Source of the DNA: Leucoraja erinacea
Lineage: Eukaryota
Direction of reading: 5' to 3'
DNA length: 64,000 nucleotides
Assembly (NCBI RefSeq): GCF_028641065.1
Contig: NC_073384.1
Span: forward strand, 16,926,001 to 16,990,000
A program made the position numbers and the translations under genes. Shown piece by piece: positions 15,263-47,761 of the stretch. The notes beneath the pieces were generated by a model. That model was given only the letters and a program-made list of their open reading frames with translations. It did no database searches and was not told the origin of the DNA. Each line of letters begins with the position of its first letter. Position 1 is the first letter of the stretch.

Positions 15263-15285
15263 CAGCTCTTGGGTACAGAGCCCGC

Positions 15286-15593
15286 CTTGCACCCTGCTTG
15301 AAATGGTACAAAACGGCACTTGAGTTTGGTTGCCTTGCACCCTGCTTGAAATGGTATGAAACTGCACCTGAGTTTGGTGGCCTTGCACCCTGCGTGAAAT
15401 GGCATGAAACTACATTTGAATTTGGTAACCTTGCACGCTGCTTGAAATGGTACAAAACGGCACGAGTTTGGTTGCCTTGCACCCTGCTTGAAATGGTATG
15501 AAACTGCACCTGAGTTTGGTGGCCTTGCACCCTGCTTGAAATGGTATGAAACTACACAAATTTGGTGGTCTTGCACCCTGCTTGAAATGGTAT
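15286..15593. repeat. 48-bp minisatellite, ~6.5 units
   Basis: Unit CTTGCACCCTGCTTGAAATGGTATGAAACTGCACCTGAGTTTGGTGGC starting at 15286, 15334, 15382, 15430, 15476, 15524, 15570. Confidence 0.93.
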
Positions 15594-22327: not shown

Positions 22328-22444
22328 CTATGTACGTTTGATGGCAGCATATTCGGTTGTCTCCTCGCTGACTTCTAAGGTTGGAGCTTTGGCATTCTGT
22401 CGTACAAACTGAATATCAGCATAGAGTATCTCCGGTTCCGCAGA
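22328..22444 (-). CDS. Terminal coding exon with ITIM and ITSM
   Basis: ctctattgcag|TCT GCG GAA...; SAEPEILYADIQFVRQNAKAPTLEVSEETTEYAAIKRT*; ILYADI is an ITIM, TEYAAI an ITSM. Confidence 0.9.
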   Translation of the reverse strand, partial: SAEPEILYADIQFVRQNAKAPTLEVSEETTEYAAIKRT

Positions 22445-25400: not shown

Positions 25401-28400
25401 CTACTGGACTGTTTGTATGAAAAATAATTTCATTGTTAGCACTTCGCAAATGTGACAATAAAAGCACTTTTGAACCATTATTTCCGCATGTCACCTTCTG
25501 TAGGATTCCAGCATCTCTTGTTTCCACATTAGCTTTCAGCCTCTATTCCAACCATCTGCTCCCCCACTTGGCTCATCTGCCCCTCTTTCCTCGCTTCATC
25601 TGTTTCTATCTATTACTGTCCTGCCTCACACCTCCCCTTCACCTCTTTCTGTTGGCTATCTGCTCTCTATGATCATGACCCAAAACATCAACCAAAACTC
25701 TATTTTAGTTGCCTAGATGGAGACTTTGAGTGCTTGAATAGATTGTTTAGATACAAGATCTAATAGAGAGGAGATATGTATTCCAACTGTTCCTATTGAT
25801 CTAAGATATAGGAGCAGATTTAGGCATTTGGCCTATCAAGTTTGTTCCACCATTCAATCATGGCTGATCGATATTTCGCTTTCATCCCCATCCTCTCCCT
25901 GTAACCTTTGGCACCCTCACTAACCAACAACCTATCAATCCCTGATTTAAAAATACCCAATGACATGGCCTCCACTGCCATCCATGGTAATGGATTCCAC
26001 ACTCAGATATGGTGTTAGAGCAAGATGACTAAGTTGTGCAGAATTTTCTTTGAAGATTGCTTTAAATCTTTATATTTCTCTGACAGAGAACTGTGAAGCT
26101 AATTTGTTGAGTATGTTTAAAGGAATTGAAAAGCCAAAGAGGTTGAATAGTTTAAGTTGAGAATGGTGCAACACTGGGCTACTTCCTTGACTGTTTCTTA
26201 TGTTCTTACATTTGGAATCATTACTGAACATAGACAACATTTGAAGAAATCCCCAATATGAGTACTGAAATTTATTTTTTACCTGTAACTGTCGAATAAA
26301 CTGGGTTCAGGTCTTCAGTAGAGTTCCTAGTGAAATGATATAGAACACACTGTCAGTGAACTATTTATATTTGTTGAATGTCTCTGAAGAACAATAACGG
26401 GACTGCATTGGTATTGGTTTATTGTTCTTATGTGTAATGAGGTACAGTGAAAAGTTTTATTTGCATGCTATCCAGTCAAATCATACTATACAATCAAAGC
26501 AGATACAAGTACAACAGGTGGTGCAAAGATAAAAATACAAGAGAAACAAATGTGGTGTTATAGCATTTTAGCTTTACGGCCACAGACAAAAAACAAGTGA
26601 TGCCACAATGGCACAGCGGATGCTACATCTTGATGATATGAGACTTGTCTTAGCAGGAAAACCAGAGCAATTTTCAAATATATGGATTCCTTTCATGGAT
26701 TCATTACAAGGATAGTATGTTGCAACATAACATCAGAATTAAACCGATTTACAGACTGGGTGATGGGTGTGGTATATCAACACTTTTTGTGTTTTTTTTC
26801 CTTTTTAAAAAAAAAGTTTTTACTTACTCTTTGATTACACTCATTTGGTAGGGGTTCTATTCTTACATATTCACTTTCTCTTTCACTTTCTTTCTTTCTT
26901 GCTCTTTCTCTCTTTTTCTATTTCATCTTTGTTAAAATTAAAATGGAAGCTGTACAATAAATGTATTATGTCATATGCCGCGGTTTATACTTTTGTATAC
27001 TGCTTCTAATAAAAATATGAATAAAAAAGTAAAACAGATAAATAAATAAAACAGATAAATAAATAATAAATAAATAAATAAACACAATGGCGCAGCGGTA
27101 GAGTTGCAGCATTACAGTGCAAGAGACACAAATTCAATCCTAACTACGGCTGCTGTCTCTACGAAGTTTGTACATTCTCCCCGTGACCTGCGTGGGTTTT
27201 CTCCGGTGCTCCAATTTCCTCCCACACGCCAAAGATGTACAGGTTTGCAGATTAATTGGCTTCGATAAAAATTGTAAATTTGCCCCAGTGAGTAGGATAG
27301 TGTTTGTGATCACTGGGCTTAGTGGGCTGAAGGGCCTATTCCCACACTATACCTCTAAAGTCTAAAGAAAGGTCTGCAATGTGGTGGGATGTTCAATAAT
27401 CACATAAAATTGTCTTATTTTCTAAATGGGGAGATCATTCAGAAATCAGAGGTGCAAAGGGACTTGGGAGTACTGGTGCAGGATTCTCAAAAGATTAATT
27501 TGCAAGTCGAATCGGTAGTAAGGAAGGTGAATGCAAAGCTCACATTTACTTTGAGGGCTATAATACAAAATAGGTTGTAATGCTGAGGCTTTATAAGGCA
27601 CTGCTCAGACCGTGTTTGGCATATTATGAGTAGTTTGGCGTATTATGATCAGTCTATATCTGAGGAAGGATGTGCTGGCATTGGGACCCAGCCTCTCCAG
27701 TCCCTCCACATAACTGAAGTTTTAGTTTAATTTAGTTTAAGATACAGTGTGGAAACAGGACCTGCGGCCCACCGAGTCTGCGCCGACCAGCGATTCCCGC
27801 ACAATAACACTATCCTAAACACTAGGACAATTTACCATTTTACCTACAATTAGCCTGCAAACCTGTACTTCTTTGGAATGTATGAGGAAACAAGCAAACC
27901 CATGCAGGTCACGGGAAGAACAGACAAACTCTGAACATATAGCACCCATAGTCAGAATCGAACCCGGGTCTCTGGCGCTGTAAGGCAGCAAACCCACCTT
28001 TGCACCCGTGCCTGAACTGTTCCATCCCATGAAACTTCCATGTTCTACGACTCTTTCCTCCGGTCTTTGCTGGATTCAACGCCCATGCCCACCATGCTTA
28101 ATTCAATATCATATTAAAGCAAGATGTGAAAATACATTTTACTCACCCTTCGGATTTAAACATGTGTTGGAAGCACACCCATTTCTTCATATAGCACACT
28201 GCTATTGCTAAGATGATGAATAAGAGGACGAATACCAGGACACAGGCTACAATACCGCCCAAGATTTTCGAAGACAACTTTTCATATGTTTGATCTGAAA
28301 AATATCAAAGGTTTATAGAGTTTAGTTGCAACATGTGTTTATTTCTCTCATTTTAAGCAAACACACAGGCTTGCTTGATGCCCCATCATAGATGCCCCAT

Positions 28401-31400
28401 CATAGCATTCTCCAAAGCTACCCAGATTGGGATAAAAATAGAAAATTGTGAACACACTCAGCAGATCAGGCTGCATCTGTGGGGAGAGATACAATCTACT
28501 CTGCAAGTTGAAAATCCTTCATCAGAACTGAGCAAGCGAGTTGGTCTGAGAGACAAGGTTGGTCTAAGTAGCCAGGAACCTGGGGGAGGGCAGGGGGTGG
28601 AACAAAGTGAATGTCTGTAATAAAACATAGAACAGTGTAGCATGGGAACAGGCTTAATCTCTGGAGAATATGGATAGGTGACATTTTGGGTCGGAATCTT
28701 TCTTCAGACTGATTGTGTGTGTGGGGGGAGGGGAGGATAGAAAGCTAGAAGAGAGGAAGGGCAGGACAAAGCATGGCAGGTAATAGGTAAAACAGGTGAG
28801 GGGTTTTGACAGGAAGATGGTTGGATAAAGGCCAGAGATGAAAAAACAGGTAATTGTCATTGAGTCATAGAGTGATTAGTGTGGAAACAGGCCCTTCAGC
28901 CCAACTAGCCCACATCGGCCAACAATATCCCAGCTGCACTAGTCCCACTCCCCTGGGTTTGACTGCACTGGGTCCTAGTGCCAATCTCCCCAACACTGGT
29001 AACCTCAGTGGCTGGCAAAGATACTAGAGGATACTCTGCGACCACCCCCCCCCCCCATCAAATATCGCCTCGGCCTCAGTTCACTCACCTGCCTTCCTCC
29101 GGCCCCAATCTCCATCCCTGGCGTGTGTTCACCATCCCCCTTGACCTCCCCCTCTCCGACACCGAATGGTCAGTCCTCAGCAGAGGCATTAACTTTGTTC
29201 CCCTCCGTCCCCACCTCAATGAGTTCCGCGCCCACCGCGACTTGGAGCTCTTATACCGTTGCCTCCACCCCACAGCATTCTTCCATGGGAAGGAGTCCTC
29301 GCCCCCTATTGATGATCCCTTTTCCCGTCTCCAACGAACCCCCTCCTCGTGGACCCCCCCTCATGGCCATCTTCCGGCTTTAGACCTTTTTATCCAAAAC
29401 TGTAGGCGGGGCATCAACCACCTCAACTTCTCCACTCCCCTGTCTCACTCCAATCTCTCCCCCCCTGAACATACTGCCATTGACTCACTCCGAAACAACC
29501 CAGACTGGGTTATCAAACCCGCCAACAATGGAGGTGCCATGGTAGTCTGGCGCGTTGATCTCTACAAAGCTGAGGCCATGCGCCAACTCTCGGACACCTT
29601 CTCCTACTTACATCTGGACCAGGGAATGGGGGGGTCTCACAAGTGAAATAGCTTAGGGCCTCTCTTCATCTAAATCTGACCCTGCATAAATATATACATG
29701 AAAATGAATCGGTATGGGCAAGTTGGGCCGAAGGGCCTGTTTTCACGCTGTATGACTATGAAAACTAAAAGATTCAATACTTTTAATGTTTTTAACATTG
29801 TAAATATTGTAAACTGAAATAAAAATGAACGTGCAAAACTGCTATCCCACAACGCGCAAAACTGCTCTATATTTTCACTAACGGAGATCGTTTAGTATTG
29901 TGTAAACTGAACTTACTAGTGACAATCATCTTGGTTCCGTTCCCTCTGATATCTCCCCACACTGTGCAGTAATAGACGGCAGAGTCATTGAGCATCACGT
30001 TTGTGACATTCAGGATGAAGCTGCTGTTGGAGACGTCTTTGAATGGCTGGAACCGCTCAGTGAAGCCTGGTTTCCTTCGTACGCTGCCTCCTGCCTCGTG
30101 TGTTAAAACCCACTCCATGTCCTGCCCGGGTAGTTCTCGGTACCAGTGGACGTCAGTGTTTCCCACTTTAGCGTTCTCCATGGAGCACCATAACCGTGCC
30201 GTGTGACCCTCAGTGACACGCTCCAGCCTCGGGAATTGGATCAGGATCGGAGGATTTGCATCTTTAATGGGAAAATACGTCTTCTTAAAAAAAAAACACT
30301 CAGCACAACCCTGCTTAAAGAGTGCACAGAATCTAACACTAAATATGTAGAATTGTTTTAGTCATTCTATAGGATGGGAGAATGCAACCTTCACGTGGTC
30401 CACCCTGTTTCGACTAATGCAATCAACCCGACGTGCACAAACCACTAGATGTAGTGTTTCGTGAGGCTGTGCACGCTGTACACAAGAAGTAGTCATTCTA
30501 TCGCATGCAATATGGAGTCCTTTTGATTAGGGCCATAGGTGTGCACAGCACAGGAATGGGCCCTTGTGATACTTAAACCAGAACAATGTTACTGAGTTCA
30601 GTGATCCTGCAATATTATATAACTTGTGCATGGGGCCAAACAAAGTTCTGAATGGGTTTGTGGAGAGGTTTGCTCCTGCTACTCAAGAGAGTTTAAACTA
30701 GTGAGACAAGGGGTTGGGACCCAGAATGACAACGGACTCATATGTAGACAATAGAACAGGCAAGTCCAGTGGAAGCATTGGCAGAGATGAGAGGGGGAGC
30801 ATGAGAGGACTGGTAGGTTTAGCTGCATTCACTTTAAAGCAAGAAGCACAGGAGGTGAGACGGATGAGTTGAGAGTGTAGATTACCACTCAAGATTATGA
30901 GGGGAAGCATGGATGAGGGAAGAGCTGTAATCTATTATTAATTTATTAATAAGTAAGTGAGGCATTTGGAATATATCAGGACAGGGTGGAGTCAAAATGT
31001 TTTTGTAAAGGAAATCATATTCAACAAATCAGCTAATTTTTTGAGATTGTAGTTACCAGCACAGATAAGGGAAAACTAGCTGATGTGAATTTGGACTTTC
31101 AGAAGGCATTTGACAAGCAACAAAGGTGCAGACAAAAATAAAAACTCTCACATATACCTGTCTTTCCACTCGCTATTCATTATACAGCCCTAGCCCCTGT
31201 GGGTACATTTATCTGCCACATCACCTCCACCTTCCGGTTCCGATCTACCTCACCATCCGCCCTCGGGTTCCACATTTTATTCCAACCTTTTCTTATCAGA
31301 TTTCATTATTTGTAATCTATTGTCTTTTCCGCTTATCACCTCCAGTCTTTGTTAATATCTTCCCCTATCCCTCCTGCACATGATAATCAACCCTTCCATA

Positions 31401-34400
31401 TACGATGTTTAAGAAGGAACTGCAGATGCTGGAAAATCGAAGGTACACAAAAATGCTGGAGGAACTCAGCGGGTGCAGCTGCATCTATGGAGCGAAGGAA
31501 ATAGGCAACGTTTCGAAACGTTGCCTTTCTTCACTCCATAGATGCTGCTGCACCTTCTGTGTTTCTACAGCATTTTTGTGTACCTTCCATATAGAAACAT
31601 AGAAACATAAAAATAGGTGCAGGAGTAGGCCATTCGGCCCTTCGAGCCACCACCGCCATTCGATATGATCATGGCTGATTATCCAACTCAGTATCCCATC
31701 CCTGCCTTCTCTCCATGCCCCCTGATCCCTTTAGCCACAAGGGCCACATCTAACTCCCTCTTCAATATAGCCAATGAACTGGCCTCAACTACCTTCTGTG
31801 ACAGAGAATTCCACAGATTCACCACTCTCCGTATAAAAAATGATTTTCTCATCTCGGTCCTAAAAGACTTCCCTCTTATCCTTAAACTGTGACCCCTAGT
31901 TCTGGACTTCCCCAACATCGGGAATAATCTTCCTGCATCTAGCCTGTCCAACCACTTAGGAGTTTAGTAAGTTACTATAAGATCCACCTTCAATATTCTG
32001 AATTCTAGCGTGTACAAGCCGAGTCTATCCAGTCTTTCTTCATATGAAAGTCCTGCCATCCTAGGAATCAGTCTGGTGAACCTTCTCTGTACTCCCTCTA
32101 TGTCAAGAATGTCTTTCCTCAGATTAGGAGACCAAAACTGTACGCAATACTCCAGGTGTGGTCTCACCAAGACCCTGTACAACTGCAGTCGAATCTCCCT
32201 GCTCTTATACTCAAATCCTTTTGCTATGAATGCTAACATACCATTTGCTTTCTTCACTGCCTGCTGCACCTGCATTCCTACTTTCAATGACTGGTGTATC
32301 TCCCCTTTTCCTAATCGGCCACCATTCAGATAATAGTCTACTTTCCTGTTTTTGCCACCAAAGTGGATAACCTCACATTTATCCACATTATACTGCATCT
32401 GCCATGCATTTGCCCACTCACCCAACCTATCCAAGTCACCTTGCAGCCTCCTAGCAGCCTCCTCACAGCTAACACTGCCCCCCAGCTTTGTGTCATCCGC
32501 AAACTTGGAGATGTTGCATTCAATTCCCTCATCCAGATCATTAATATATATTGTAAATAGCTGGGTTCCCAGCACTGAGCCTTGCGGTACCCCACTAGTC
32601 ACTGCCTGCCATTCTGAAAAGGACCCGTTTACTCCTACACTTTGCTTCCTGTTTATCAGCCAGTTCTCTATCCACATCAATACTGAACCCCCAATACCGT
32701 GTGCTTTAGGTTTGTTTACTAATCTCTTATGTAGTACCTTGTCAAAAACCTTCTGAAAGTCCAGATATAGCACATCCACTGGTTCTCCTTTATCCACTCT
32801 ACTAGTTACATCCTCAAAAAATTCTATAAGTAAGTAAGTAAGTTTTATTTATATAGCACTTTTAAGTCAACTCGCATTGACACCAGTGCTTTACATAAAT
32901 TAGATAATAAGTTTCCATACAAACCAGAGAAAAAGGTTAAAAAAATAAAGAAAATGGACACAACACATTTTAGAGTTCAACACAAACGTCCCCCCACAGC
33001 ACAATCAAACATTTCCACTGTGGGGAAAGGCACCAGAAAGTTAAGTCCTCTTCCTCTGAAACACCTGAGGTCGGGGCCCATTTGTAGCCTTGCAGCCAGT
33101 CCGATGATTTTCATGGCCCTCTTGACGTGAAGATGGAACTCTGTCGTCGGGTGAAACATTCCTCAGCGGCTTGGAAATTCTGGAACTGCTGCCTCCTGCC
33201 CAGAGACCGGAGACCGGGGCACTTGTAGCCCTCAGGCCGCGCCGGTTGGAGCTCCGACCCCGGCGAACTCAATCCCTGGCTCCACGGTGCTCCAAATCCA
33301 GCGCCGCCAGCGGCCGGCTGCCCACAGCCACAGCTCTGCAATGTTGGGAGTCGGCGGCCACAGCGCTCCAGAGCTTACCGCACGGCGAGCCGGTAAGGCA
33401 TCGCTCGCTATCTGTTGGTATCCCAGCGCTGTGCCGCTGTCGAAGCTGTAGCCTGGCCAGTCCCGACAGGAAAACGCCGCTCCATTCTCGATGGTAGGCC
33501 GCGAGGACTGGGCGAAGAAGCAGCTTGGAGGGATGCTGCCTCTCTGACCAGGTAGGTGACTAAAAATTAAATTTTCCCCCTTCCCCGCCCCCGCCCACCA
33601 CATAAAAGACCTCCAACTAACAAACTAACATTTTTTAACAGGACTTAAAATACATAAAAGGTGAAGAGACGGACTGCGGACAGGCTGCCATACACAGACG
33701 GCGCCCACTCCTGCACATCCGCCATCTTTTTTTATAAGATTCGTCAGACATGATTTACCTTTCATAAATCTATGCTGACTTTGTCCAATGAATTCACCAC
33801 TTTCCAAATGTGCTGCTATCCCGTCTTTAATAACTGACTCCAGAAATTTCCCCACCACCGATGTTGGACTAACTGGTCTGTAATTCCCCGTTTTTTCTCT
33901 CCCTCCATTTTTAAAAAGGGGGGTTACATTAGCTACCCTCCAGTCCTCAGGAACTACTCCAGAATCTAAAGAGTTTTGAAAAATTATCACTATTGCATCC
34001 ACTATTTCTGCGGCTACTTCCTTAAGTACTCTGGGATGCAACTTATCTGGCCCTGGGGATTTATCGGTCTTTAATCTATTCAATTTACCTAACAACACTT
34101 CCCGGCTAACCTGGATTTCACTCAGTTCCTCCATCTCATTTAACCCCTGGTCCATCTGCTGAGTTCCTCTGGGACTACTATCTACATTGGAGATCCTTGG
34201 ACTATCTTTGATTGGAATCACTGGCTTTATCTAGCACTAAACGTTATTTACGTTATTCCCTTTATCGTGTATCTGTGGATGGCTCAATTGTAATTATGTA
34301 TTGTCTTTCCACTGACTAGTTAGCCTGCAAAATCTTTTTACTGTATGTTAGTACACGTGACAATAAATTAAACTCAAACACATAACCTCAAGCTTGGCTT

Positions 34401-37400
34401 TTTCTTAAGAAATTGATAATATTTCTTCTCCCATTGGATTTTATGAGCTAATCTATTCCTTTTAACAACATATGAAGTGATCCTCTTTCTCTACTTACTC
34501 TGATTTGTTTCAGGAGGGATATGGGCCAAATGCAGACAGGTAAGACTAGTGTAGCAGGACATGTTAGCCGGTGTGGGCAAGTTGGGCAGAAGGGCATGTT
34601 TCCACGCTGTATGACTCTTTGATGTTATGCTATTAGTTGGTAATACCTTCCATCTCTGACAGCTCAAACCCAAAGGCAAATCCTTTTTCATCCACAAACC
34701 ATTTGCGGAGACTATTCACACTTTTGATTTTTGTTCTCTTGTACTCGTCCTTTCACACACTTATCTATTTCCTAGCTGTTGCACTTTACACGCCAAGGAT
34801 AACTTCCCCACTCTCTGTTTTACTGGGAGTGGTCACAGAATTCCCATGTGTCAGTGAGTCATTGCGTGAAGGTTGAAGTGTGAGCTGCTGTTATCGTCAG
34901 TGTAGGCAAACAATGACTTACCAGTTACATTGAGCTGGGATCCTGCTCCATAGATGTAACTCCACACACTGCAGTTGTAGACAGCAGTGTTATTGATGGA
35001 GACATTGGTGATGGTCAGAATGTAACTGTTGCTCATGGCATTCCTAAAAGACTGAAAGCGGTCAGAGATACGGGCGGACCTGGTGACGTTGCCATCCACA
35101 AAGTGGCTCATTATCCACTCGCTGTTTTTCCCAGGTCGCTGCTGGTTCCAGTGGACGTCAGTGTCATTCACACCAGCATTGTGCAAGACACATTGCAACT
35201 GCACGGTTACACCCTCTGCCACCTTGCTGACTGACGGAGACTGGATAAGGACCGGATCATACATGGGATCTGTGTGAATATACATGGAGCTCAATGGAAG
35301 GCATCATATTTCTCCAGCATTTAGTGTGTAACAGTTTATAAAATTGGAATACCATCACATACTTCCCAGTGAGACTCAGGATAATTGAAGAGAAAGATTA
35401 TCGAGGATGTCAGATTTATCCATGTTCTCCGGACTTGCTGGCTGACCTTTTAAGTTACTCCAACAGCTTTTGCCTTTTGTTTTTAATGTTTGCCTTCCAA
35501 ACTGCTCATTCTATCTACATGTTGACTTGTATGAGAACACCCAGATTCCTCTGACATTACAGTCTCACAACATTAAAAAAAATGCTTTGCATGTCAATCT
35601 TTCCTACAGAAGTGAATGAAGATATAGTCCATCTGACTTGTCCTGCTCTTTATACTTGTCTGTGCCCCTTGCAGCCTCCTCACATGTTGCATCGCCTACC
35701 TTGTAACCTGGATATGTTATACTTGGAGGTACACAAAATTGCTGGAGAAACTCAGCGGGTGCAGCAGCATCTATGGAGCGAAGGAAATAGGCGACGTTTC
35801 GGGCCGAAACCCTTCTGCAGCAGAAGGTGAAAACGGGCCGTGCGGGACTGGGGAACGATGAGGTTGGAAGCTTGGTCGGGCAGGGCGTGGGGATTGATGA
35901 AGTCGGTGATGGTGCTAGAAATGGTGGCCTGGTGCTCATCAGTGGGGTCATCGTCCAAGGGTAAGTAGGAGGAGGTGTCCGAGAGTTGGCGCGTGGCCTC
36001 AGCTTGGTAGAGATCGACGCGCCAAACTACCATGGCACCTCCCTTGTCGGCTGGTTTGATGACCCAATCTGGGTTTTTGCGGAGTGATTCAATGGCAGTG
36101 CGTTCAGAGGGGGAGAGATTGGAGTGAGACAGGGGAGTGGAGAAGTTGAGGTGGTTGACGTCGCGGCGGCAGTTCTGGATAAAGAGTTCCAGAGCCGGGA
36201 CTTTACGAGGGGGGTTCCACGAGGAGGGGGTGCGTTGGAGACAGGAAAAAGGGTCATGATTGGGGGACGAGGACTCCTTCCCATGGAAGTGCGCTGTGAG
36301 GCGGAGGCGACGGTAGAAGTGCTCCAAGTCATGGTGGGCGCGGAACTCATTGAGATGGGGACGGAGAGGGACAAAGGTAAGACCTCTGCTGAGGACAGAC
36401 CGTTCGGTGTGGGAGAGGGGGAGGTCGGGGGGGATGGTGAACACCCGGCAGGGATGGGAGTTGGGACCAGAGGAAGGCAGGTGGGTAGACTGGTGATGGG
36501 GCGATGTGTCGGGGGGGGGGGGGGGCTGTGGGTGTTGGGGGGGGGGTGGTGGGTGGTCAGGGGGTTGGGGGGGGGGGGGGGGGGAGTGAGAGGGCTGTAA
36601 TGTGGGTGGGGAAGCGCAGGGGTAACATAGTTGGAGGGGGATGGGGGAGAGTCAGTGGAACAGCCACTGAGGTTAGCAAGGCTGGGCAGAGGGGCACTAG
36701 GACCCAGTGGAGTTGAGCCCAGGAGAGAGGGAGTGAGCATCGTGGAGGCTTGCGGCCCAGTGCAGAGTCCAGGCTCCAGGTAAGGCGACGGCTGTGGGTT
36801 GCTGGAGGGGGGTGGAGCGGACCCGATGGTCGTAGTCCAGTGGCAGTTCAGTCGGGGTCCGCGGCGATGTGTGGGAGGTCCCAGTGGGTGGATAGTCGGC
36901 GGGGCGGTGGCGAGATGTTATACTTGGTCTCCTCATCCTCGATTGTGAACAGTGAGGGTCCCAGCACCAAACCCTACTCCACCTCTCACTAGTCACAGCC
37001 TCTCAGCTTGGATACCTGCTGTTCATTCCAGTTCCTCCAAGAGTTTCTACCCTACTTTGCTAGTTACAAACATCTAATAACGTGAGCTTTAAAAGATTTC
37101 TCAACCATGATGTCGATTTCATACATCCACGTTGACTCTGTTCTTACACTGACCCTATTCTTCTGCCTTTGTGTCGGATTCTTATCTTTCCTTTACCGCC
37201 GATGGTGCAATGAGTTATCTACTTCATTGGAACATGGAAATTATATTGAGGGGGAATTTCAACTGTGCTTCACACTATTTAACATGGATTAGGGGCCCGC
37301 ATCAATGCAATGCTGATGAGCAATGACTCAGATCCAGACAACAATGAACTGTCAGCCTGAGGGAGGGCATGAACACAGGTGATCAACGTGTAACCTGTTT

Positions 37401-40400
37401 CTTCTCAGCCAGTCCCAGAGGCCTGGCCTTGGATCCAGTGACAGCGTTGTTGTTGTTGTTGTTGCCTCTGCTCTGTGAGTGGTTCAAGTCTCAGTGATTC
37501 CTGGTTGAAAACAAGCCCGAAGTTTTGACGGTCGGCGGGACTGGGAACCCGTCAAAAGGCTCATCGGTCGGCATGACCAGGAGTGAGCTGGAGACGTCAG
37601 ACACAAGGAGCAAAGGCCGGTGCGAGGTTGAACCAGGGACATGTCTCCAGTGCCTCCAGATAGTCTGCTGGAGGCACCCCGAGACACAACGATGGCCGGG
37701 CGAGGAGAGGAGAGGGACGTTGGTTCGTGGGAACTACTCCAGTACATCGAGTTGTGGGCTGACCGGACGTTGCACTTTGAATGAAGGCGCCAAAACATGG
37801 CACCACCAGCATGTGTAATATATGCAAAAATAATTTCACTGCACAGTTGCATATGTGACAAATAAAGAACTATTGAACCATTGGAATATGGAGGCAGCAT
37901 TGGTTAATCTAAAGCCATGACAAGTTGTAGTTCTGCTCTCCTGTACCTTAACTCAAACAGCTGTGAGCAGTGCCCTGCTATTACACTGAGCCCTAAACAA
38001 CGTATCTAGTTTTCTCTACAATGAAGAACACACTGCACATTTAAATTTATTTCCCACAACCCAGATCTGACATCAGTTACCATATCAGTGCTCACACCAT
38101 TAGTGAGGGGCCAAAATGTATTGGTCTCCAGAATCAGGGCTCCAGTACGATCTCCTTACTCTTTCAGTACTCCCGGTACATGTGCCAATTCAAGGGAAGT
38201 GAATTACACCCAATATAGTTACACATAGGTTAATGAAACCAAATATAATTTGTACTCACTGGTTACATTGAGCTGGGTTCCATTCCCTCTGATATCTCCC
38301 CACACTGTGCAGTAATAGACGGCAGAGTCATTGAGCATCACGTTTGTGACATTCAGGATGAAGCTGCTGTTGGAGGCGTCTTTGAACGGCTGGAACCGCT
38401 CAGTGAAGCCTGGTCTCCTTCGTACGCTGCCTCCTGCCTCGTGTGTTAAAACCCACTCCATGTCCTGCCCGGGTAGTTCTCGGTACCAGTGGACATCAGT
38501 GTTTCCCACTTCAGCGTTCTCCATGGAGCACCATAACCGTGCCGTGTGACCCTCAGTGACACGCTCCAGCCTCGGGAATTGGATCAGGATTGGAGGATTT
38601 GCAACTTTAATGGGAAAATACGTCTTCTTAAAAAAAAACACTCAGCACAACCATGCTTAAAGAGTGCACAAAATCTAACACTAAATATGTAGAATTGTTT
38701 TAGTCATTCTATAGGATGGGAGAATGCAACCTTCACGTGGTCCACCCTGTTTCGACTAATGCAATCAACCCGACGTGCACAAACCACTAGATGTAGTGTT
38801 TCGTGAGGCTGTGCACGCTGTACACAAGAAGTAGTCATTCTATCGCATGCAATATGGAGTCCTTTTGATTAGGGCCATAGGTGTGCACAGCACAGGAATG
38901 GGCCCTTGTGATACTTAAACCAGAACAATGTTACTGAGTTCAGTGATCCTGCAATATTATATAACTTGTGCATGGGGCCAAACAAAGTGCTGAATGGGTT
39001 TGTGGAGAGGTTTGCTCCTGCTACTCAAAAGAGTTTAAACTAGTGAGACAAGGGGTTGGGACCCAGAATGACAACGGACTCATATGTAGACAATAGAACA
39101 GGCAAGTCCAGTGGAAGCATTGGCAGAGATGAGAGGGGGAGCATGAGAGGACTGGTAGGTTTAACTGCATTCACTTTAAAGCAAGAAGCACAGGAGGTGA
39201 GACGGATGAGTTGAGAGTGTAGATTACCACTCAAGATTATGAGGGGAAGCATGGATGAGGGAAGAGCTGTAATCTATTATTAATTTATTAATAAGTAAGT
39301 GAGGCATTTGGAATTTATCAGGACAGGGTGGAGTCAAAATGTTTTTGTAAAGGAAATCATATTCAACAAATCAGCTAATTTTTTGAGATTGTAGTTACCA
39401 GCACAGATAAGGGAAAACTAGCTGATGTGAATTTGGGCTTTCAGAAGGCATTTGACAAGCAACAAAGGTGCAGATAAAAATAAAAACTCTCACATATACC
39501 TGTCTTTCCACTCGCTATTCATTACACAGCCCTAGCCCCTCTGGGTACATTTATCTGCCACATCACCTCCACCTTCCGGTTCCGATCTACCTCACCATCC
39601 GCCCTCGGGTTCCACATTTTATTCCAACCTTTTCTTATCAGATTTCATTATTTGTAATCTATTGTCTTTTCCGCTTATCAAATCCAGTCTTTGTTAATAT
39701 CTTCCCGTATCCCTCCTGCACATGATAATCAACCCTTCCATATACGATGTTTAAGAGGGAACTGCAGATGCTGGAAAATCAGGGAGCATCTATGGAGTGA
39801 AGGAAATAGGCAACGTTTCGAAACGTTGCCTTTCTTCGCTCCATAGATGCTGCTGCACCTTCTGTGTTTCTCCAGCATTTTTGTGTACCTTCCATATAGA
39901 AACATAAAAATAGGTGCAGGAGTAGGCCATTCGGCCCTTCGAGCCTGCCCCGCCATTCGATATGATCATGGCTGATTATCCAACTCCCTGATTATCCCAT
40001 CCCTGCCTTCTCTCCATACCCCCTGATCCCTTTAGCCACAAGGGCCACATCTAACTCCCTCTTCAATATAGCCAATGAACTGGCCTCAACTACCTTCTGT
40101 GGCAGAGAATTCCACAGATTCACCACTCTCTGTGTAAAAAAAATGATTTTCTCATCTCGGTCCTAAAAGACTTCCCTCTTATCCTTAAACTGTGACCCCT
40201 AGTTCTGGACTTCCCCAACATCGGGAATAATCTTCCTGCATCTAGCCTGTCCAACCACTTAAGAGTTTAGTAAGTTACTATAAGATCCACCCTCAATATT
40301 CTGAATTCTAGCGTGTACATGCCGAGTCTATCCAGTCTTTCTTCATATGAAAGTCCTGCCATCCCAGGAATCAGTCTGGTGAACCTTCTCTGTACTCCCT

Positions 40401-43400
40401 CTATGTCAAGAATGTCTTTCCTCAGATTAGGAGACCAAAACTGTACGCAATACTCCAGGTGTGGTCTCACCAAGACCCTGTACAACTGCAGTAGAACCTC
40501 CCTGCTCTTATACTCAAATCCTTTTGCTATGAATGCTAACATACCATTTGCTTTCTTCACTGCCTGCTGCACCTGCATTCCTACTTTCAATGACTGGTGT
40601 ATCTCCCCTTTTCCTAATCGGCCACCATTCAGATAATAGTCTACTTTCCTGTTTTTGCGACCAAAGTGGATAACCTCACATTTATCCACATTATACTGCA
40701 TCTGCCATGCATTTGCCCACTCACCCAACCTATCCAAGTCACCTTGCAGCCTCCTAGCATCCTCCTCACAGCTAACACTGCCCCTCAGCTTTGTGTTATC
40801 CGCAAACTTGGAGATGTTGCATTCAATTCCCACATCCGGATCATTAATATATATTGTAAATAGCTGGGATCCCAGCACTGAGCCTTGCGTACCCCACTAG
40901 TCACTGCCTGCCATTCTGAAAAGGACCCGTTTACTCCTACACTCTGCTTCCTGTTTATCAGCCAGTTCTCTATCCACATCAATACTGAACCCCCAATACC
41001 GTGTGCTTTAAGTTTGTTTACTAATCTCTTATGTAGGACCTTGTCAAAAACCTTCTGAAAGTCCAGATATAGCACATCCACTGGTTCTCCCTTATCCACT
41101 CTACTAGTTACATCCTCGAAAAATTCTATAAGTAAGTAAGTTTTATTTATATAGCACGTTTTAAGTCAACTCGCATTGACACCAGTGCTTTACATAAATT
41201 AGATAATAAGTTTCCATACAAACCAGAGAAAAAGGTTAAAAAAATAAAGAAAATGGACACAACACATTTTAGAGTTCAACACAAACGTCCCCCCACAGCA
41301 GAATCAAAAATTTCCACTGTGGGGAAAGGCACCAGAAAGTTAAGTCCTCTTCCTCTGAAACACCCGAGGTCGGGGCCCATTTGTGGCTTTGCAGCCAGTC
41401 CGATGATTTTCAGGGCCCTCTTGACGTGAAGATGGAACTCCGTCGTCGGGTGAAACATTCCTCAGCGGCTTGGAAATTCTGGAACTGCTGCCTCCTGCCC
41501 AGAGACCGGAGGCCGGGGCACTTGTAGCCCTCAGGCCGCGCCGGTTGGAGCTCCGACCCCGGCGAACTCAATCCCTGGCTCCACGGTGCTCCAAATCCAG
41601 CGCCGCCAGCGGCCGGCTGCCCACAGCCACAGCTCTGCAATGTTGGGAGTCGGCGGCCACAGCGCTCCAGAGCTTACCGCACGGCGAGCCGGTAAGGCAT
41701 CGCTCGCTATCTGTTGGTATCCCAGCGCTGTGCCGCTGTCGAAGCTGTAGTCCCGGCCAGTCCCGACAGGAAAACGCCGCTCCATTCTCGATGGTAGGCC
41801 GCGAGGACTGGGCGAAGAAGCAGCTTGGAGGGATGCTGCCTCTCTGACCAGGTAGGTGACTAAAAATTAAATTTTCCCCCTTCCCCACCCCTGCCCATCA
41901 CATAAAAGACCTCCAACTAACAAACTAACATTTTTTAACAGGACTTAAAATAAAAAAAAGGTGAAGAGACGGACTGCGGACAGGCTGCCATACACAGACG
42001 GCGCCCACTCCTGCACATCCGCCATCTTTTTTTATAAGATTTGTCAGACATGATTTACCTTTCATAAATCCATGCTGACTTTGTCCAATGAATTCACCAC
42101 TTTCCAAATGTGCTGCTATCCCATCTTTAATAACTGACTCCAGAAATTTCCCCACCACCGATGTTGGACTTACTGGTCTGTAATTCCCTGTTTTCTCTCT
42201 CCCTCCCTTTTTAAAAAGGGGGGTTACATTAGCTACCCTCCAGTCCTCAGGAACTACTCCAGAATCTAAATAGTTTTGAAAAATTATCACTATTGCATCC
42301 ACTATTTCTGCGGCTACTTCCTTAAGTACTCTGGGATGCAACTTATCTGGCCCTGGGGATTTATCGGTCTTTAATCTATTTAATTTACCTAACACCACTT
42401 CCCGGCTAACCTGGATTTCACTCAGTTCCTCCATCTCATTTAACCCCTGGTCCCTCTGCTGAGTTCCTCTGGGACTACTATCGACATTGGAGATCCTTGG
42501 ACTATCTTTGATTGGAATCACTGGCTTTATCTAGCACCAAACTTTATTTACGTTATTCCCTTTATCGTGTATCTGTGGATGGCTCAATTGTAATTATGTA
42601 TTGTCTTTCCACTGACTAGTTAGCCCGCAAAAGCTTTTTACTGTATGTTAGTACACGTGACAATAAATTAAACTCAAACTCATAACCTCAAGCTTGGCTT
42701 TTTCTTAAGAAATTGATAATATTTCTTCTCCCATTGGATTTTATGAGCTTTTAACAACATATGAAGTGATCCTCTTTCTCTCCTTACTCTGATTTATTTC
42801 AGGAGGGATATGGGCCAAATGCAGGCAGGTGGGACTAGTGTAGCAGGACATGTTAGCCGGTGTGGGCAAGTTGGGCAGAAGGGCATGTTTCCACGCTGTA
42901 TGACTATTTGATGTTATGCTATTAGTTGGTAATACCTTCCATCTCTGACAGCTCAAACCCAAAGGCAAATCCTTTTTCATCCACAAACCATTTGCGGAGA
43001 CTATTCACACTTTTGATTTTTGTTCTCTTGTACTCGTCCTTTCACACACTTATCTATTTCCTAGCTGTTGCACTTTACACGCCAAGGATAACTTCTCCAC
43101 TCTCTGTTTTACTGGGAGTGGTCACAGAGTTCCCATGTGTCAGTGAGTCATTGCATGAAGGTTGAAGTGTGAGCTGCTGTTATCGTCAGTGTAGGCAAAC
43201 AATGACTTACCAGTTACATTGAGCTGGGATCCTGCTCCATAGATGTAACTCCACACACTGCAGTTGTAGACAGCAGTGTCATTGATGGAGACATTGGTGA
43301 TGGTCAGAATGTAACTGTTGCTCATGGCATTCCTGAAAGACTGAAAGCGGTCAGAGATATAGCCAGACCTGGTGACGTTGCCATCCACAAAGTGGCTCAT

Positions 43401-46400
43401 TATCCACTCGCTGTTTTTCCCAGGTCGCTGCTGGTTCCAGTGGACGTCAGTGTCATTCACACCAGCTTTGTGCAAGACACATTGCAACTGCACGGTTACA
43501 CCCTCTGCCACCTTGCTGACTGGCGGAGATTGGGAAAGGATCGGATCATCCAGGGGATCTGTGTGAATATACATGGAGCTCAATGGAAGACATCATATTT
43601 CTCCAGCATTTAGTGTGTAACAGTTTCTAAAATTTGAAACATACTTCCCAGGGAGGCTCAGGATAATTGAAGAGTAAGATTATCGAGGATGTCAGATTTA
43701 TCCATGTTCTCCGGACTTGCTGGCTGACCTTTTAAGTTACTCCAACAGCTTTTGTCTTTTGTTTTTAATGTTTGCCTTCCAAACTGCTCATTCTATCCAC
43801 ATGTTGACTTTAAGTTATTTTGTGTATGAGAACACCCAGATTCTTCTGACCTTACTGTCTCACAACATTAAAAAAATGCTTTATGTCCATTTTACCTGCA
43901 GAAGTGAATGAAGATATAGTCCATCTGACTTGTCCTGCTCTTTATACTTGTCTGTGCCCCTTGAAGCCTCCTCCCATGTTGCTTTGCCTACCAACTAACC
44001 TGGATATGTTATACTTGGTCTTCTCATCCTCGATTGTGAACAGTGAGGGTCCCAGCACCAAACCGTACCTCTCACTAGTCACAGCCCCTCAGCTTGGATA
44101 CCTGCTGTTCATTCCAGTTCCTCCATAGATTCTACCCTACTTTGCTAGTTACAAACATCTACCAACTTTCAGAGATTTCTCAACCATGATGTCCATTTTA
44201 TACATCCACGTTGAATCTGTTCTTACACCGACCCTATTCTTCTGCCTTTGTGTTGGATTCTGATCTTTCCTTTACTGCCGATGGTGCAATGAGTTATCTA
44301 CTTCGCTGGAACATGGAAATTATATTGAGGGGGAATTTCAACCATGCTTCACACTATTTAACATGGATTAGGGGCCCACATCAACATAATGCTGATGAGC
44401 AATGACTCAGATCCAGACAACAATGAACTGTTAGCCTGAGGGAGGGCATGAACACAGGTGATCAACGTGTAACCTGTTTCTTCTCAGTGAGTTCCAGAGG
44501 CCTGGCCTTGGATCCAGTGACAGCGTTGTTGTTGTTGTTGTTGTTGCCTCTGCTCTGTGAGTGGTTCAAGTATCAGTGATTCCTGGTTGAAAACAAGCCC
44601 GAAGTTTTGCCGGTCGGCGGGACTGGGAACCCGTCAAAAGGCTCATCGGTCGGCATGACCGGGAGTGAGCTGGAGATGTCAGACACAAAGAGCAAAGGCC
44701 GGTGCGAGGTTGAACCAGGGAAATGTCTCCAGTGCCTCCAGGTAGCCTGCTGGAGGCACCCCCAGGCCACAAAGATGGCTGGGCGAGGAGAGGAGAGGGA
44801 CTTTGGTTCGTGGGAACTACTCCAGTACATCGAGCTGTGGGCTGACCGGACGTTGCACTTTGAATGATCATGACGCCAAAACATGGCACCACCAGCATGT
44901 GTAATATATGCAAAAATAATTTCACTGCATAGTTGCATATGTGACAAATAAAAAACTATTGAACCATTGGAATATGGAGGCAGCATTAGTTAATCTAAAG
45001 CCATGACAAGTTGTTGTTCTGCTCTCCTGTACCTTAACTCAAACAGCTGTGAGCAGTGCCCTGCTATTACACTGAGCACTAAACAACGTATCTAGTTTTC
45101 TCTACAATGAAGAACACACTGCACATTTAAATTTATTTCCCACAACCCATATCTGACATCAGTTACCATATCAGTGCTCACACCATTAGTGAGGGGCCAC
45201 AATATATTGGTTTCCAGAATCAGGGCTCCAGTACGATCTCCTTAATCTTTCAGTACTCCCGGTACATGTGCCAATTCAAGGGAAGTGAATTACACCCAAT
45301 ATAGTTACACATAGGTTAATAAAACCAAATATAATTTGTACTCACTGGTTACGTTGAGCTGGGTTCCATTCCCTCTGATATCTCCCCACACTGTGCAGTA
45401 ATAGACGGCAGAGTCATTGAGCATCACGTTTGTGACATTCAGGATGAAGCTGCTGTTGGAGGCGTCTTTGGACGGCTGGAACCGCTCAGTGAAGCCTGGT
45501 TTCCTTCGTACGCTGCCTCCTGCCTCGTGTGTTAAAACCCACTCCATGTCCTGCCCGGGTAGTTCTCGGTACCAGTGGACATCAGTGTTTCCCACTTCAG
45601 CGTTCTCCATGGAGCACCATAACCGTGCCGTGTGACCCTCAGTGACACGGTCCAGCCTCGGGAATTGGATCAGGATTGGAGGATTTGCAACTTGAAAGGG
45701 AAAATATCAACAGATGAACACTAATGTTGGAGTTGCTAAATACTTCATGTGTTTCAACTTAAAATACATTCATCCTTTGTCATTAGATAACCTCATGTAA
45801 AAGTAATGCTAACTTGGTTAGCAACTGATATTAAAATCATGATTGCAGCTGATTGCAACTTTCTCCCTGTTCACGATTATCTTTCACTCTCTCACTCTCT
45901 TTCTCTCTCTCTCCCTCCAGTGTTGGGAGGTGTTGCCTCACAATGGGGATTTCATTTTTCATTTAGCTTTGTTTAGTCGTGTATTTAGTCCTTTGCTGCT
46001 ACAGAGATAAGCAGATCTCTGTATATTGGAGGAATAAGAGGGTATGGAAATAGTACAGATAGATCATTGAGGTGGTAATGCTTAGTTTACTTTAGTGTAA
46101 AGATGCAGCATGGAAACAGGTCCTTCACTCACTGAGCCCATGCTGACCATTGAGTAATTGATCTCAGTGTGGCAGACGGTGCAACTAGGTTCAAATGTTT
46201 CTTTATTAGTCACGTACACCGAGGTGTAGTGAAATGCTTGTTGCCAATGCAGCACATAAAAAAAGAATACAAACATGACAATAATAAAGAAATTTAACAT
46301 AAAAAACATCCCTCCACAATGGTTTCCATTATGAGGGAAGATACTAAGTCCAGTCCCATCCCCATGTCCGCCCATAGTTGGGCCTATTGAGGCCTCCGCA

Positions 46401-47761
46401 GTCGCCGCTACGGAGGCCCAATGTTCCAGGCTGTTCTCGCTGGGTAATGGTGCTCTGGCATCGGGAGAATCTTCTCCGCGGCATGGGACACCTGGAGCGG
46501 CCGCCTCCTTACTCGAGACCGCGTCTTCCAAAACCAACAAGGACGCGCCGGATGGAGTTCCACAACTGGTGATCTCGGTGAGAGATCCCAGGCTCCCGAT
46601 GAAAAGTTCAGCGCTTTCGGCCGCTTCATCGGCGGACCTCAGCTTACCGGATCTCCAGCGCGGCGACCCGGGCAAGGCATCACCCGCTCTGCGATAGTGC
46701 TCCAGCGCTGTGCCGCTGCCGAAGCTGAGGTTCTGGGTGGTCCCCTCAGGAAACGCCGTTCCAGGCCCGCTGGTAGGCCGCGAGGACGGGTCGACGGTGC
46801 AGCCCGGAGAAAAGCTTCCTCTCCGACCAGGTAGGGACCCTGAAAGATAGTTTCCCCATTCCCCCCCCACCCCTCATATAAAAAAGACTAGAACTCCAGA
46901 ACAAAAACACTTTAACTAACTAAAAATAAAAAAAAAGATTAAAAAACGGACAGCTGCAGGACATACCATACAGGTATGGTGCCCCAACTAATAGTGCCCG
47001 TGCATAAACTGTGAATGGCTCGATTGTAATCATGTATTGTCTTTCCGCTGACTGGTTAGCAGGCAACAAAAGCTTTTCACTGTACCTCGGTAGATGTGAC
47101 AATAAAGTAAACTCAAACAAAAGTGATTATAAATAAAGAAACTAGCCTACCTATACTGTAATTTCTTTACATTCATCTGTTCACACTATGTGTACCTCTC
47201 TGGCAATGCCGAATTACCTTCTCCATCCTGATCTCAGAACGCAGTAACGAGTGATCTGCATTATTCAGTTAAAAAATAATTTTGACCTATTTTCATTCTC
47301 CATTTTGCAGTGTGAACTTTTAATGATGTTTGTCTCTGTAAAACTGACAACATGACATCATGATTCCTCGTGATGTTAGGATTGGAATTAGAACCAATTT
47401 AAATACTCACTGGTTACATTCAGCTTGGTTCCTTTTCCAAATAAAGTCCCCCAAATGTTACAGATGTAATCAGCAGAGTCGGCAATCTTCACCTCTCTGA
47501 TGGTCAGTGAGTAGCTGTTACTGGTGGCATTCCTGGAAAGCTGAAATCGATCGGAGAAGCCCAGTGACCTGTAAGTGTAGCCATTGACATAAAGACTAAG
47601 TTTGATTTCTCCATTACGTGAGTTGAACCAGTGAACGTCGAATTTGTTCACAATGGCATCCACATTGGTGCTGTTCAGGACACACCGTATCTCCACTGTT
47701 TCACCTTCACGCACCACCAGAGCACCTGGGGATTGGATCAGGACTGTGTTTGCCTTTAGAC
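22328..47761 (-). CDS. Multi-exon gene: type I membrane receptor with six VJ-type Ig V-set domains, neutral TM and ITIM/ITSM tail (inhibitory immune-type receptor); leader exon not located
   Basis: Ten exons with canonical AG/GT sites and compatible phases (47411-47761, 45346-45690, 43211-43558, 38260-38604, 34922-35269, 29917-30261, 28147-28294, 26283-26326, 23885-23928, 22328-22444) total 2435 nt and read without internal stops to TAG at 22328-22330. Confidence 0.88.
22625..23645 (-). mobile_element. CR1 ORF2 3' fragment (intronic)
   Basis: QGSVLGP...ISKFADDTK, LVRPHLEYCVQFW, QRVVSGWNKLP. Confidence 0.88.
23885..23928 (-). CDS. Cytoplasmic exon 2
   Basis: ttatttcag|TT GAA ACC... to ...ACT ATG|gtaagt; 44 nt, phase 1-0; VETKTNTEPAPNVTM; bridges the phases of its neighbours exactly. 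Confidence 0.75.
26283..26326 (-). CDS. Cytoplasmic exon 1 (NPVYSTV)
   Basis: tttcactag|G AAC TCT... to ...GTT ACA G|gtaaaa; 44 nt, phase 2-1, matching the TM exon; encodes NSTEDLNPVYSTVT. Confidence 0.75.
27085..27370 (+). mobile_element. HE1-like tRNA SINE
   Basis: TGGCGCAGCGGTAGAG head plus family body. Confidence 0.7.
27720..28010 (-). mobile_element. HE1-like tRNA SINE
   Basis: Reverse-complement SINE body with (TAAAC)n-type tail. Confidence 0.7.
28147..28294 (-). CDS. Transmembrane exon
   Basis: tttttcag|AT CAA ACA... to ...GAA GG|gtgagt; 148 nt, phase 1-2. NQTYEKLSSK-ILGGIVACVLVFVLLFIILAIAVCY-MKKWVCFQHMFKSEG: uncharged hydrophobic span then a KK stop-transfer signal. Confidence 0.9.
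28960..29625 (+). mobile_element. Penelope-like element ORF fragment
   Basis: VLSRGINFVP...SNLSPPE...LRNNPDWVIKPANNGGAMVVW, the N-terminal region of a PLE RT. Confidence 0.8.
29917..30261 (-). CDS. Ig V exon 6 (type B, membrane-proximal)
   Basis: cattaaag|AT GCA AAT... to ...GTC ACT A|gtaagt; 345 nt, phase 1-1; ends YYCTVWGDIRGNGTKMIVT. Confidence 0.92.
30371..30489. mobile_element. Short retroposed insertion with 12-bp TSD (also present in the duplicate, ~38712-38830)
   Basis: TAGTCATTCTAT at 30359-30370 and 30490-30501. Confidence 0.6.
31590..34150 (-). mobile_element. CR1 ORF2 3' portion interrupted by a GC-rich non-autonomous retroposon (~32831-33730)
   Basis: KSPGPD...NYRPVS (33625-34221 ORF) continues as YLDFQKVFDKV...FADDTK (31964-32797 ORF); TATAAG repeated at the insert edges. 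Confidence 0.88.
34922..35269 (-). CDS. Ig V exon 5 (type C)
   Basis: cacacag|AT CCC ATG... to ...GTA ACT G|gtaagt; 348 nt, phase 1-1; paralog of V exon 3. Confidence 0.9.
35727..36914 (-). mobile_element. Penelope-like element insertion with 13-bp TSD
   Basis: LSRGLTFVP...IKPADKGGAMVVW; ATGTTATACTTGG at 35714-35726 and 36915-36927; single empty site at 44006-44018 in the duplicate. Confidence 0.9.
38260..38604 (-). CDS. Ig V exon 4 (type B, chimeric flanks)
   Basis: cattaaag|TT GCA AAT... to ...GTA ACC A|gtgagt; 345 nt, phase 1-1; near-identical to V exons 2 and 6. Confidence 0.9.
39895..42450 (-). mobile_element. Duplicate of the CR1 plus nested retroposon block
   Basis: Near-identical to 31590-34150. 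Confidence 0.88.
43211..43558 (-). CDS. Ig V exon 3 (type C)
   Basis: cacacag|AT CCC CTG... to ...GTA ACT G|gtaagt; 348 nt, phase 1-1. VQLQC...DVHWNQQRPG...DTAVYNCSVWSYIYGAGSQLNVT. Confidence 0.92.
45346..45690 (-). CDS. Ig V exon 2 (type B)
   Basis: tttcaag|TT GCA AAT CCT... to ...GTA ACC A|gtgagt; 345 nt, phase 1-1. ARLWC...DVHWYRE...DSAVYYCTVWGDIRGNGTQLNVT. Confidence 0.92.
46186..46970 (-). mobile_element. GC-rich non-autonomous retroposon
   Basis: Shares its body (GCGCTGTGCCGCTGCCGAAGCTG...GGCCGCGAGG...GACCAGGTAGG) with the 32831-33730 and ~59690-60515 copies. Confidence 0.65.
47411..47761 (-). CDS. Ig V exon 1 (type A, membrane-distal)
   Basis: cccacag|GT CTA AAG... to ...GTA ACC A|gtgagt; 351 nt, phase 1-1. 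GLKANTVLIQSP...VEIRC...DVHWF...SDRFQLS...YSLTI...DSADYICNIWGTLFGKGTKLNVT has B-strand Cys, C-strand Trp, DxAxYxC and FGxGT. Confidence 0.92.

Follow-up and report, generated by a model that had tools for sequence, protein, structure and literature searches.

A skate gene with six non-rearranging V+J domains and an inhibitory-type tail: a predicted paired receptor close to the immunoglobulin light chain sigma-2

The DNA analysed in this study is a stretch of 64,000 nucleotides from the skate Leucoraja erinacea (NCBI RefSeq assembly GCF_028641065.1, contig NC_073384.1, positions 16,926,001 to 16,990,000 of the forward strand), referred to below as the window, which carries on its minus strand a gene for a protein with six V-set immunoglobulin (Ig) domains. 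The gene probably encodes a type I membrane protein with six non-rearranging variable-plus-joining (V+J, or VJ) domains and a cytoplasmic tail with a tyrosine-based inhibitory motif of immunoreceptors (ITIM) and a tyrosine-based switch motif (ITSM); it is a predicted inhibitory paired receptor, likely derived from a germline-joined gene of the Ig light chain sigma-2. Its closeness to sigma-2 is well supported by sequence comparison, and descent from sigma-2 is what we infer. The gene belongs to a family of uncharacterised shark, ray and chimaera receptors. No published description of this family was found in titles or the openings of abstracts, including under six member gene IDs, and supplementary gene tables may list the loci.

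Six-frame translation revealed six V-set open frames between 47.8 and 29.9 kb of the window, all on the minus strand and in the order V1-B-C-B-C-B, with Pfam V-set scores of 50–58 bits against a cut-off of 26. The membrane-distal V1 exon (47411..47761, J-like motif FGKGTKLNV) is followed by B1 (45346..45690, RGNGTQLNV), the domain of the gene nearest to sigma-2 V, and by C1 (43211..43558, YGAGSQLNV), which has an N-glycan sequon at IMGT position 103 (constant domains are called C1-set below to keep them apart from this exon). B2 (38260..38604, RGNGTQLNV) and C2 (34922..35269, YGAGSQLNV) share 97% and 92% amino-acid identity with B1 and C1, respectively, and the last domain exon is B3 (29917..30261, RGNGTKMIV). 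All six exons have an AG acceptor, a GT donor, phase 1 at both ends and an open frame. The C+B unit is duplicated in tandem (29908..44018; 29908-35726 against 38251-44018) with 96% DNA identity over 5.8 kb, and this duplication added two domains to the gene.

Downstream on the same strand lie a transmembrane (TM) exon without a charged residue (28147..28294), a first cytoplasmic exon with the tyrosine motif PVYSTV (26283..26326), a second cytoplasmic exon that forms a spacer (23885..23928), and a terminal exon (22328..22444) which ends with the stop codon and contains ILYADI and TEYAAI, matching the ITIM and ITSM as defined in PMC12151841. The assignment of the TM exon agrees with the helix predicted in the protein model of a neighbouring paralogue. 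The complete open frame comprises 811 residues with 32 N-glycan sequons and ends in the two tail motifs. A likely split-leader exon of 16 codons plus one base, assigned to V1 by order and strand, lies 7.4 kb past the end of the window (G000:C8:16997344-16997392) and is 76–88% identical to leaders of named relatives.

Each of the six exons encodes a domain that begins at strand A and closes with a J-like G strand, and its equivalent of the third complementarity-determining region (CDR3) has six residues. The donor lies one base past the last J-like codon, which is the identical codon position in the joined sigma-2 genes of the skate. The pattern Y-x-C-x2-W-x4-G-x-G-[ST]-x-[LM]-x-V occurred six times in the window and in none of 30 simulated windows matched to its dinucleotide content. 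A scan for recombination signal sequences (RSS) found none at the 3' end of any of the six exons, and the identical scan did detect RSS beside rearranging V segments of the skate genome. An earlier reading of the window, made from the sequence only, had described every Ig exon as a germline-joined V+J unit with a very short CDR3 equivalent and a phase-1 donor directly after the J-like segment, and the present data bear it out on each of these points; the J-like motifs that it quoted were recovered letter for letter, with RGNGTQLNV and YGAGSQLNV each present twice. Its diglycine J motif stands as a G-x-G motif, but the canonical F-G-x-G is retained in V1 only, since IMGT position 118 is R in the B domains and Y in the C domains. 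The six V exons had been recognized correctly, whereas the TM/ITIM/ITSM end of the gene, the paralogues with an activation motif and the range of the family had been missed.

Splicing of close relatives was seen in contigs from public sequencing runs, in which exact CT..AC joints were found at 45690|47411 (V1 to B1, run X4) and at 43558|45346 (B1 to C1, runs X1 and X2), and one contig (X1) joined a C exon, the TM exon and the terminal exon. The sources of these contigs are two organisms that differ by a few percent, so that orthologues or paralogues are possible. In an AlphaFold model of P0036, the protein of a neighbouring paralogue, made from 44 sequences (mean pLDDT 79, pTM 0.48), three V domains are complete and have a bulge in their G strands, a TM helix is present and the tail is disordered; the G strand was unfolded in a single-domain model from 11 sequences. 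Searches of the PDB by sequence and by fold matched engineered antibody fragments and left the isotype undistinguished, and the clusters obtained from a protein atlas were generic ones of V-set and lambda type only. It was also seen that the acceptors of B2 (at 38604) and B3 (at 30261) are AAG and that their pyrimidine tract is short. One contig and the gene model named for the neighbouring paralogue skip the last B exon, and alternative splicing may therefore vary the length of the stalk.

The closest matches outside the family in the skate genome were germline-joined VJ-C clusters on contigs C1433 and C1206. In their V domains the C1433 genes are 82–92% identical to an L. erinacea light chain that bears the name type I and, as type I is sigma-2 according to PMC5985310, these genes were named sigma-2. 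Scored against a profile of the family, domains of the skate's own genome gave 88–113 bits for sigma-2 V, at most 73 for lambda, at most 58 for other antigen-receptor V, at most 47 for non-rearranging and non-receptor V-set domains, and 33.5 for a UrIg-like V. When 1.84 billion representatives were ranked, the best 150 contained no domain above 75 bits other than family members and sigma-2-type VJ-C1 chains (84.6–119), the next match having 62, and a coelacanth light chain was the sole bony-vertebrate domain to exceed 75 bits there. The identity of B1, over the V part only, averaged 43% to sigma-2 (n = 9), 31% to lambda (n = 18) and 20% to non-receptor domains (n = 21), and all six family domains tested were nearest to sigma-2 by identity. 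The relation extends to the DNA level, where about 300 nt of B1 aligned with skate sigma-2 V at 58–60% identity (E down to 9e-21). In the B and C domains the Cys23-Trp41 spacing is 13 and the Trp41-Cys104 spacing 58, as in chondrichthyan sigma-2; V1 differs (17/55), and 13/58 is also found in IgM VH and hence is not exclusive to sigma-2, whose CDR1 and CDR2 are given as 8 and 7 residues in PMC5985310.

Maximum likelihood trees were built on 95 columns from framework 1 to Cys104, excluding CDR3 and J, with references whose labels were mostly assigned in this analysis by motif, RSS type and C exon; named sequences of NKp30, PRARP, SIRP, CD8 or lamprey were not among them. The family joined sigma-2 in all four trees: with 116 rows (SH-aLRT 90), with 73 rows (99/94; 43 of the 116 rows were dropped for speed or long branches), with a changed set of 73 rows that included ten non-rearranging VJ references (99/92), and with 41 rows under the C20-PMSF mixture model (94/90). 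It lay inside the antigen-receptor group in the 73-row tree (95/96) and in the 41-row tree (95/91). In the changed 73-row tree, ten other non-rearranging VJ(-C1) domains of the skate genome fell outside the clade of family and sigma-2. In none of the trees did the family group with UrIg-like V, with further non-rearranging VJ domains, or with V-set domains of the CD300, Siglec, butyrophilin, nectin or TIM kind. These results agree with the likeness to antigen-receptor V domains proposed in the sequence-only reading, for which clustering with CD300/pIgR, Siglec or butyrophilin domains was to have been the contrary outcome. That reading had left a choice between a lineage older than the RAG transposon and a germline-joined antigen-receptor gene; the latter, in the form of sigma-2 (type I), is now favoured, and the former is disfavoured, though not rejected by the approximately unbiased (AU) tests described below (p 0.071 and 0.232).

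A search with the B domain gave 90 related proteins among 182 candidates, 89 of them from sharks, skates and rays and one without a species. All bear automatic names only, including SIRP-alpha-like and pIgR-like. The top matches were skate proteins (94–95% identity), and exons neighbouring the window gene are identical to L. erinacea gene models. The chimaera Callorhinchus milii also has members, one of which (P0230) consists of three tandem VJ domains and a TM segment. In the skate genome the family forms a cluster at 16.47–17.22 Mb of contig C8, with two ITIM/ITSM genes, five sets of a second type of TM and tail, and one long-stalk gene. [quoted passage not shown] The tails of the 90 proteins, isoforms included, comprised 34 with ITIM/ITSM, 18 with ITAM, 12 with other tyrosine motifs and 6 that were short, and 20 proteins had no TM segment; none of the 70 TM segments was charged. 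Paired receptor families consist of clustered paralogues that are alike in their ectodomains and opposed in their tail motifs. This holds for the present family and, because neighbouring paralogues carry an ITAM tail, the family looks like one of paired inhibitory and activating receptors.

Among the skate V1 paralogues, variation lies mostly in the CDR loops. In a comparison of four of the five skate V1 exons, 15 of 25 CDR columns and 8 of 88 framework columns were variable (Fisher p 4e-7), and pN/pS was 4.2 in the CDRs against 0.84 in the framework, a rough estimate from four sequences with non-independent pairs and few synonymous changes. Such CDR-focused variation was absent in nine B and four C exons of the skate. 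V1 is thus likely to be the ligand-binding domain, by analogy with receptors of similar plan, and its CDR-equivalent loops would bind a varying ligand, either of pathogens or a polymorphic self molecule. The heavily glycosylated B and C repeats would form a stalk that sets the reach and whose length changes through exon duplication. ITIM/ITSM receptors recruit SHP-1 and SHP-2. By the same analogy the phosphorylated tail of the window gene would recruit these phosphatases and damp activation, which the ITAM-bearing paralogues would oppose.

The proposed origin of the family begins with a sigma-2-like V and J that would have been joined once in the germline, before the split of chimaeras and elasmobranchs, giving the fixed CDR3 of six residues. 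[quoted passage not shown] The family CDR3 has six residues in 241 of 243 parsed domains (259 were extracted), whereas joined sigma-2-type genes have 8, 10 or 11, a pattern consistent with independent joining events in the germline, the family going back to one of them. Sigma-2 is reported to be split in the horn shark (PMC2193156) and joined in the skate (PMC2193156, PMC2192082) and in coelacanth, gar and turtle (PMC5985310). We consider it somewhat better than an even chance that germ-cell RAG activity in early cartilaginous fish made a light-chain VJ exon which was exapted into innate paired receptors, conserved for more than 400 million years, with CDR loops that are still diversifying.

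Several observations weigh against this account. The AU tests rejected neither a group of all antigen-receptor V without the family (p 0.071), nor sigma-2 monophyly (p 0.205), nor the family with non-receptor V-set domains (p 0.232) or with UrIg-like V (p 0.10), and for this reason closeness to sigma-2 is regarded as supported and the direction of descent as inferred. Only 95 alignment columns were available and the deep forks were weakly resolved, and monophyly of the family itself was weak (93/59 in the changed 73-row tree) and broken in the other three trees. No remnant constant exon, RSS or octamer was found that would tie the locus to an Ig cluster, and the TM and tail have no traced donor. 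One contig splices a C exon directly to the TM exon, and the contigs cover partial joints of the six-domain transcript. No depth was found over the C2 exon in three RNA runs with the same species label, of which 1–6% each was sampled. The small V1 sample behind the pN/pS ratio belongs here as well.

The most serious alternative, which we nevertheless regard as doubtful, is that the family and sigma-2 both keep, in a never-split and slowly evolving form, the VJ exon that the RAG transposon entered, the family being sister to all rearranging V and sigma-2 their earliest branch. The AU tests are compatible with antigen-receptor V forming a group without the family (p 0.071; p 0.232), the joined state of sigma-2 in coelacanth, gar, turtle and skate (PMC5985310, PMC2192082) fits a never-split exon, and a split leader and a donor at the J position would also be expected in such a precursor according to PMC12227049. 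Against this, none of the four maximum likelihood trees was rooted in this way and the family fell within the antigen-receptor group, no relative from outside the chondrichthyans was among the best 150 representatives, the joined sigma-2 genes vary in CDR3 length, and the family has no C1-set domain, whereas the proposed precursor is VJ-C1. The locus also argues against a relic. Proposed pre-RAG relics are placed in the major histocompatibility complex (MHC) or the antigen-receptor complex by PMC12227049 and PMC10751288, and the neighbours on contig C8, where the flanks were partly sampled, differ from the markers of these complexes that are given in the two sources. These neighbours are PTK2B, a TRIM gene, MCM3, a DUF4772 gene, CHRNA2/4, a GULO-type oxidase, a butyrophilin-like gene and IIGP genes, a set which we take to correspond to a human block of the 8p21/6p12 type. 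Scoring of 150 of 220 candidates gave no C1-set exon on the contig, and a perfect octamer was absent from the 250 bp upstream of the leaders in the family and in sigma-2 genes alike, hence uninformative.

If descent from sigma-2 is accepted, the protein could still be an adhesion or Ig-binding molecule, for example a heavy-chain partner like the surrogate light chain, whose V domains pair as in an antibody variable fragment (Fv) and which does not serve leukocytes as a ligand sensor. This is improbable. The light-chain ancestry and the VpreB precedent discussed in PMC2193156 speak for it, as do the V1 domains, in which F118 is kept in 39 of 56 and G-x-G in 56 of 56. Interface positions are eroded, however: of the 56 V1 domains, 47 have I103 and 39 have S44; of the 139 B-type domains, 81 have S118 and 95 have N120; and 27 of the 48 C domains have N103, which in C1 and C2 of the window belongs to a sequon. 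Judged by IMGT positions 44, 103, 118 and 120, Fv-type pairing is unlikely, and the contrast of ITIM with ITAM paralogues and the CDR-focused variation suit ligand sensing. Strongly disfavoured is the reading as a V-set family of the common non-receptor kind, be it CD300/pIgR/MDIR, Siglec, butyrophilin, SIRP or NITR, whose G-x-G arose by convergence. The tail like those of SIRP, Siglec and PD-1, the automatic names SIRP-alpha-like and pIgR-like, a butyrophilin-like gene about 400 kb away and the AU value of 0.232 speak for it; against it stand at most 47 bits compared with 88–113 for sigma-2, mean identities of 19–21% compared with 35–43%, a DNA-level match to sigma-2, and trees that yield sigma-2 even without the J motif.

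By the features tested, the window gene is no member of Ig/TCR, sigma-2 light chains, UrIg, NITR, NKp30, SIRP or CD300. Of the features of Ig and TCR genes, the split leader and the J-type G strand with a phase-1 donor are present, and RSS-flanked split V and J and the C1-set domain are absent, the VJ exons being spliced to TM. The light-chain plan of one VJ and one C1-set domain without TM is likewise not that of the gene. With sigma-2 (type I, sigma-cart, NS5; PMC2192082, PMC5985310) it shares the V clade, the loop spacing of B and C, the register of the split leader (G-L-x-A), the J-donor codon and the germline-joined state in skate, but it has tandem V domains and a TM and ITIM/ITSM tail (ITAM in relatives) in place of a C1-set exon, and the family differs in its fixed CDR3 length, eroded V-V interface and locus. 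Rearranging V or orphan J segments were rejected as an identity, as no RSS accompany the exons and other F-G-x-G-T matches in the window lack a J-like continuation. A retrocopy of a processed mRNA was rejected by inference from the retained leader intron and J donor.

SIRP, CD33-related Siglec and CEACAM-type receptors have an ITIM+ITSM tail, activating paralogues and a distal V domain that varies most; SIRP is V-C1-C1 and Siglec V-C2 in plan. The tail, the paired plan and the concentration of variation in the distal V domain are alike here, and the ectodomain ancestry differs, only VJ domains being present. CD300/pIgR/MDIR domains have a second disulfide in the C-C' region, which is absent here, each of the six window domains having only the two canonical cysteines. 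NKp30/NCR3 has a single VJ domain and a charged TM residue, in contrast to the six domains of this gene and the uncharged TM segments of its relatives. The gene shares a single-exon VJ with G-x-G with the joined VJ genes of NKp30/NCR3, PRARP and CD28H type (PMC11599192). The NITR of ray-finned fish are, like this family, a non-rearranging multigene cluster with J-like motifs within single exons (bioRxiv 2021.06.11.448072) and have inhibitory and activating forms (PMC7916673), but they combine V and I domains, whereas all six domains here are V-set of one sigma-2-like VJ clade, and activation in the skate family would be through a cytoplasmic ITAM. An unnamed teleost V labelled NITR-like in this analysis (P0106) fell outside the family in two trees. 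By analogy, the mode of action would be that of a NITR/SIRP-type paired receptor. UrIg and UrIg2 of elasmobranchs resemble the gene in their non-rearranging single-exon VJ, split leader and near-identical internal duplications of exon pairs, but are described as VJ with three or more C1-set domains and as linked to the MHC or antigen-receptor complex (PMC12227049). UrIg2 was rejected as the identity of the window gene on account of its C1-set domains, and the skate UrIg-like V did not group with the family in the changed 73-row and 41-row trees.

To our knowledge, single-exon VJ genes are routinely taken for relics of the gene that RAG split, and this family looks like the reverse case, in which innate receptors were built from the V+J of an antibody light chain. 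If so, it would be a direct example of a rejoined Ig gene becoming a novel receptor, as predicted without a case by Lee et al. 2000; section 23 of PMC2193156 proposes that such a change could occur and states that a direct example was lacking. The family would also stand as the equivalent of NITR/KIR-type receptors in cartilaginous fish, and would caution that VJ receptors without rearrangement may have come from antigen receptors and not the other way round. It is a candidate paired ITIM/ITAM family for cartilaginous fish, in which NITR homologues are reported as lacking by bioRxiv 2021.06.11.448072. If instead the pre-RAG rooting were true, nothing alive today would be nearer to the pre-RAG VJ exon than sigma-2 and this family, a result of no less weight. 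As many public genomes contain the family, its direction of descent, its ligand and the cell type that expresses it are open to direct tests.

Further observations were made in the cluster on contig C8. A member at G000:C8:16.47-16.49 Mb (L040/L083) combines a B domain with a domain of a fourth type and with a stalk exon that is very long and rich in Asn and Gly, and its orthologue P0056 has 1999 residues and a TM segment. Decaying copies include a frameshifted B exon (17053713), a B exon with LINE-like sequence in place of its 5' end (17.17 Mb, L011), an ITAM exon with a stop (L162), and TM and tail exons with no V exon found nearby (17.14–17.15 Mb), a birth-and-death pattern. At 17.35–17.43 Mb (L113-L120), V and C exons of butyrophilin-like type, a gene for an interferon-inducible GTPase (IIGP) and a PRY-SPRY exon adjoin the GULO-type gene, so that the region holds several immune genes. 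The window itself contains a GA-rich low-complexity tract (14625-15593 and scattered), a 48-bp minisatellite (15284-15593) and many fragments of LINE reverse transcriptase and SINEs.

Other V-type loci were found elsewhere. Clusters and single genes that combine a non-rearranging VJ exon with a C1-set exon occur in the skate genome at G000:C17:15.9-16.3 Mb and 19.9-20.1 Mb (L144-L146, L160), C13:5.51-5.58 Mb (L042, L065), C32:14.37 Mb (L150) and C1438:256 kb (L058), all of them candidates for NCR3-, SIRP- or PRARP-type genes. L141 (G000:C1460:239-245 kb) has a single-exon VJ followed by three C1-set exons, with UrIg2 V as its best natural PDB match, and by its sequence is likely to be UrIg. 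L025 (G000:C31:192 kb) is a fully germline-joined IgM-type VDJ exon with C1-set exons downstream, and L032-L034, L074 and L075 (G000:C25:22.3-23.0 Mb) form a germline-joined lambda (type II) VJ-C array, in part with a C-x2-W CDR3 of eight residues. A divergent VJ-C1 light-chain-like protein of Chiloscyllium punctatum (P0225), about 40% identical to sigma-2 chains, branches below sigma-2 and the family and is possibly an unrecognised light-chain lineage.

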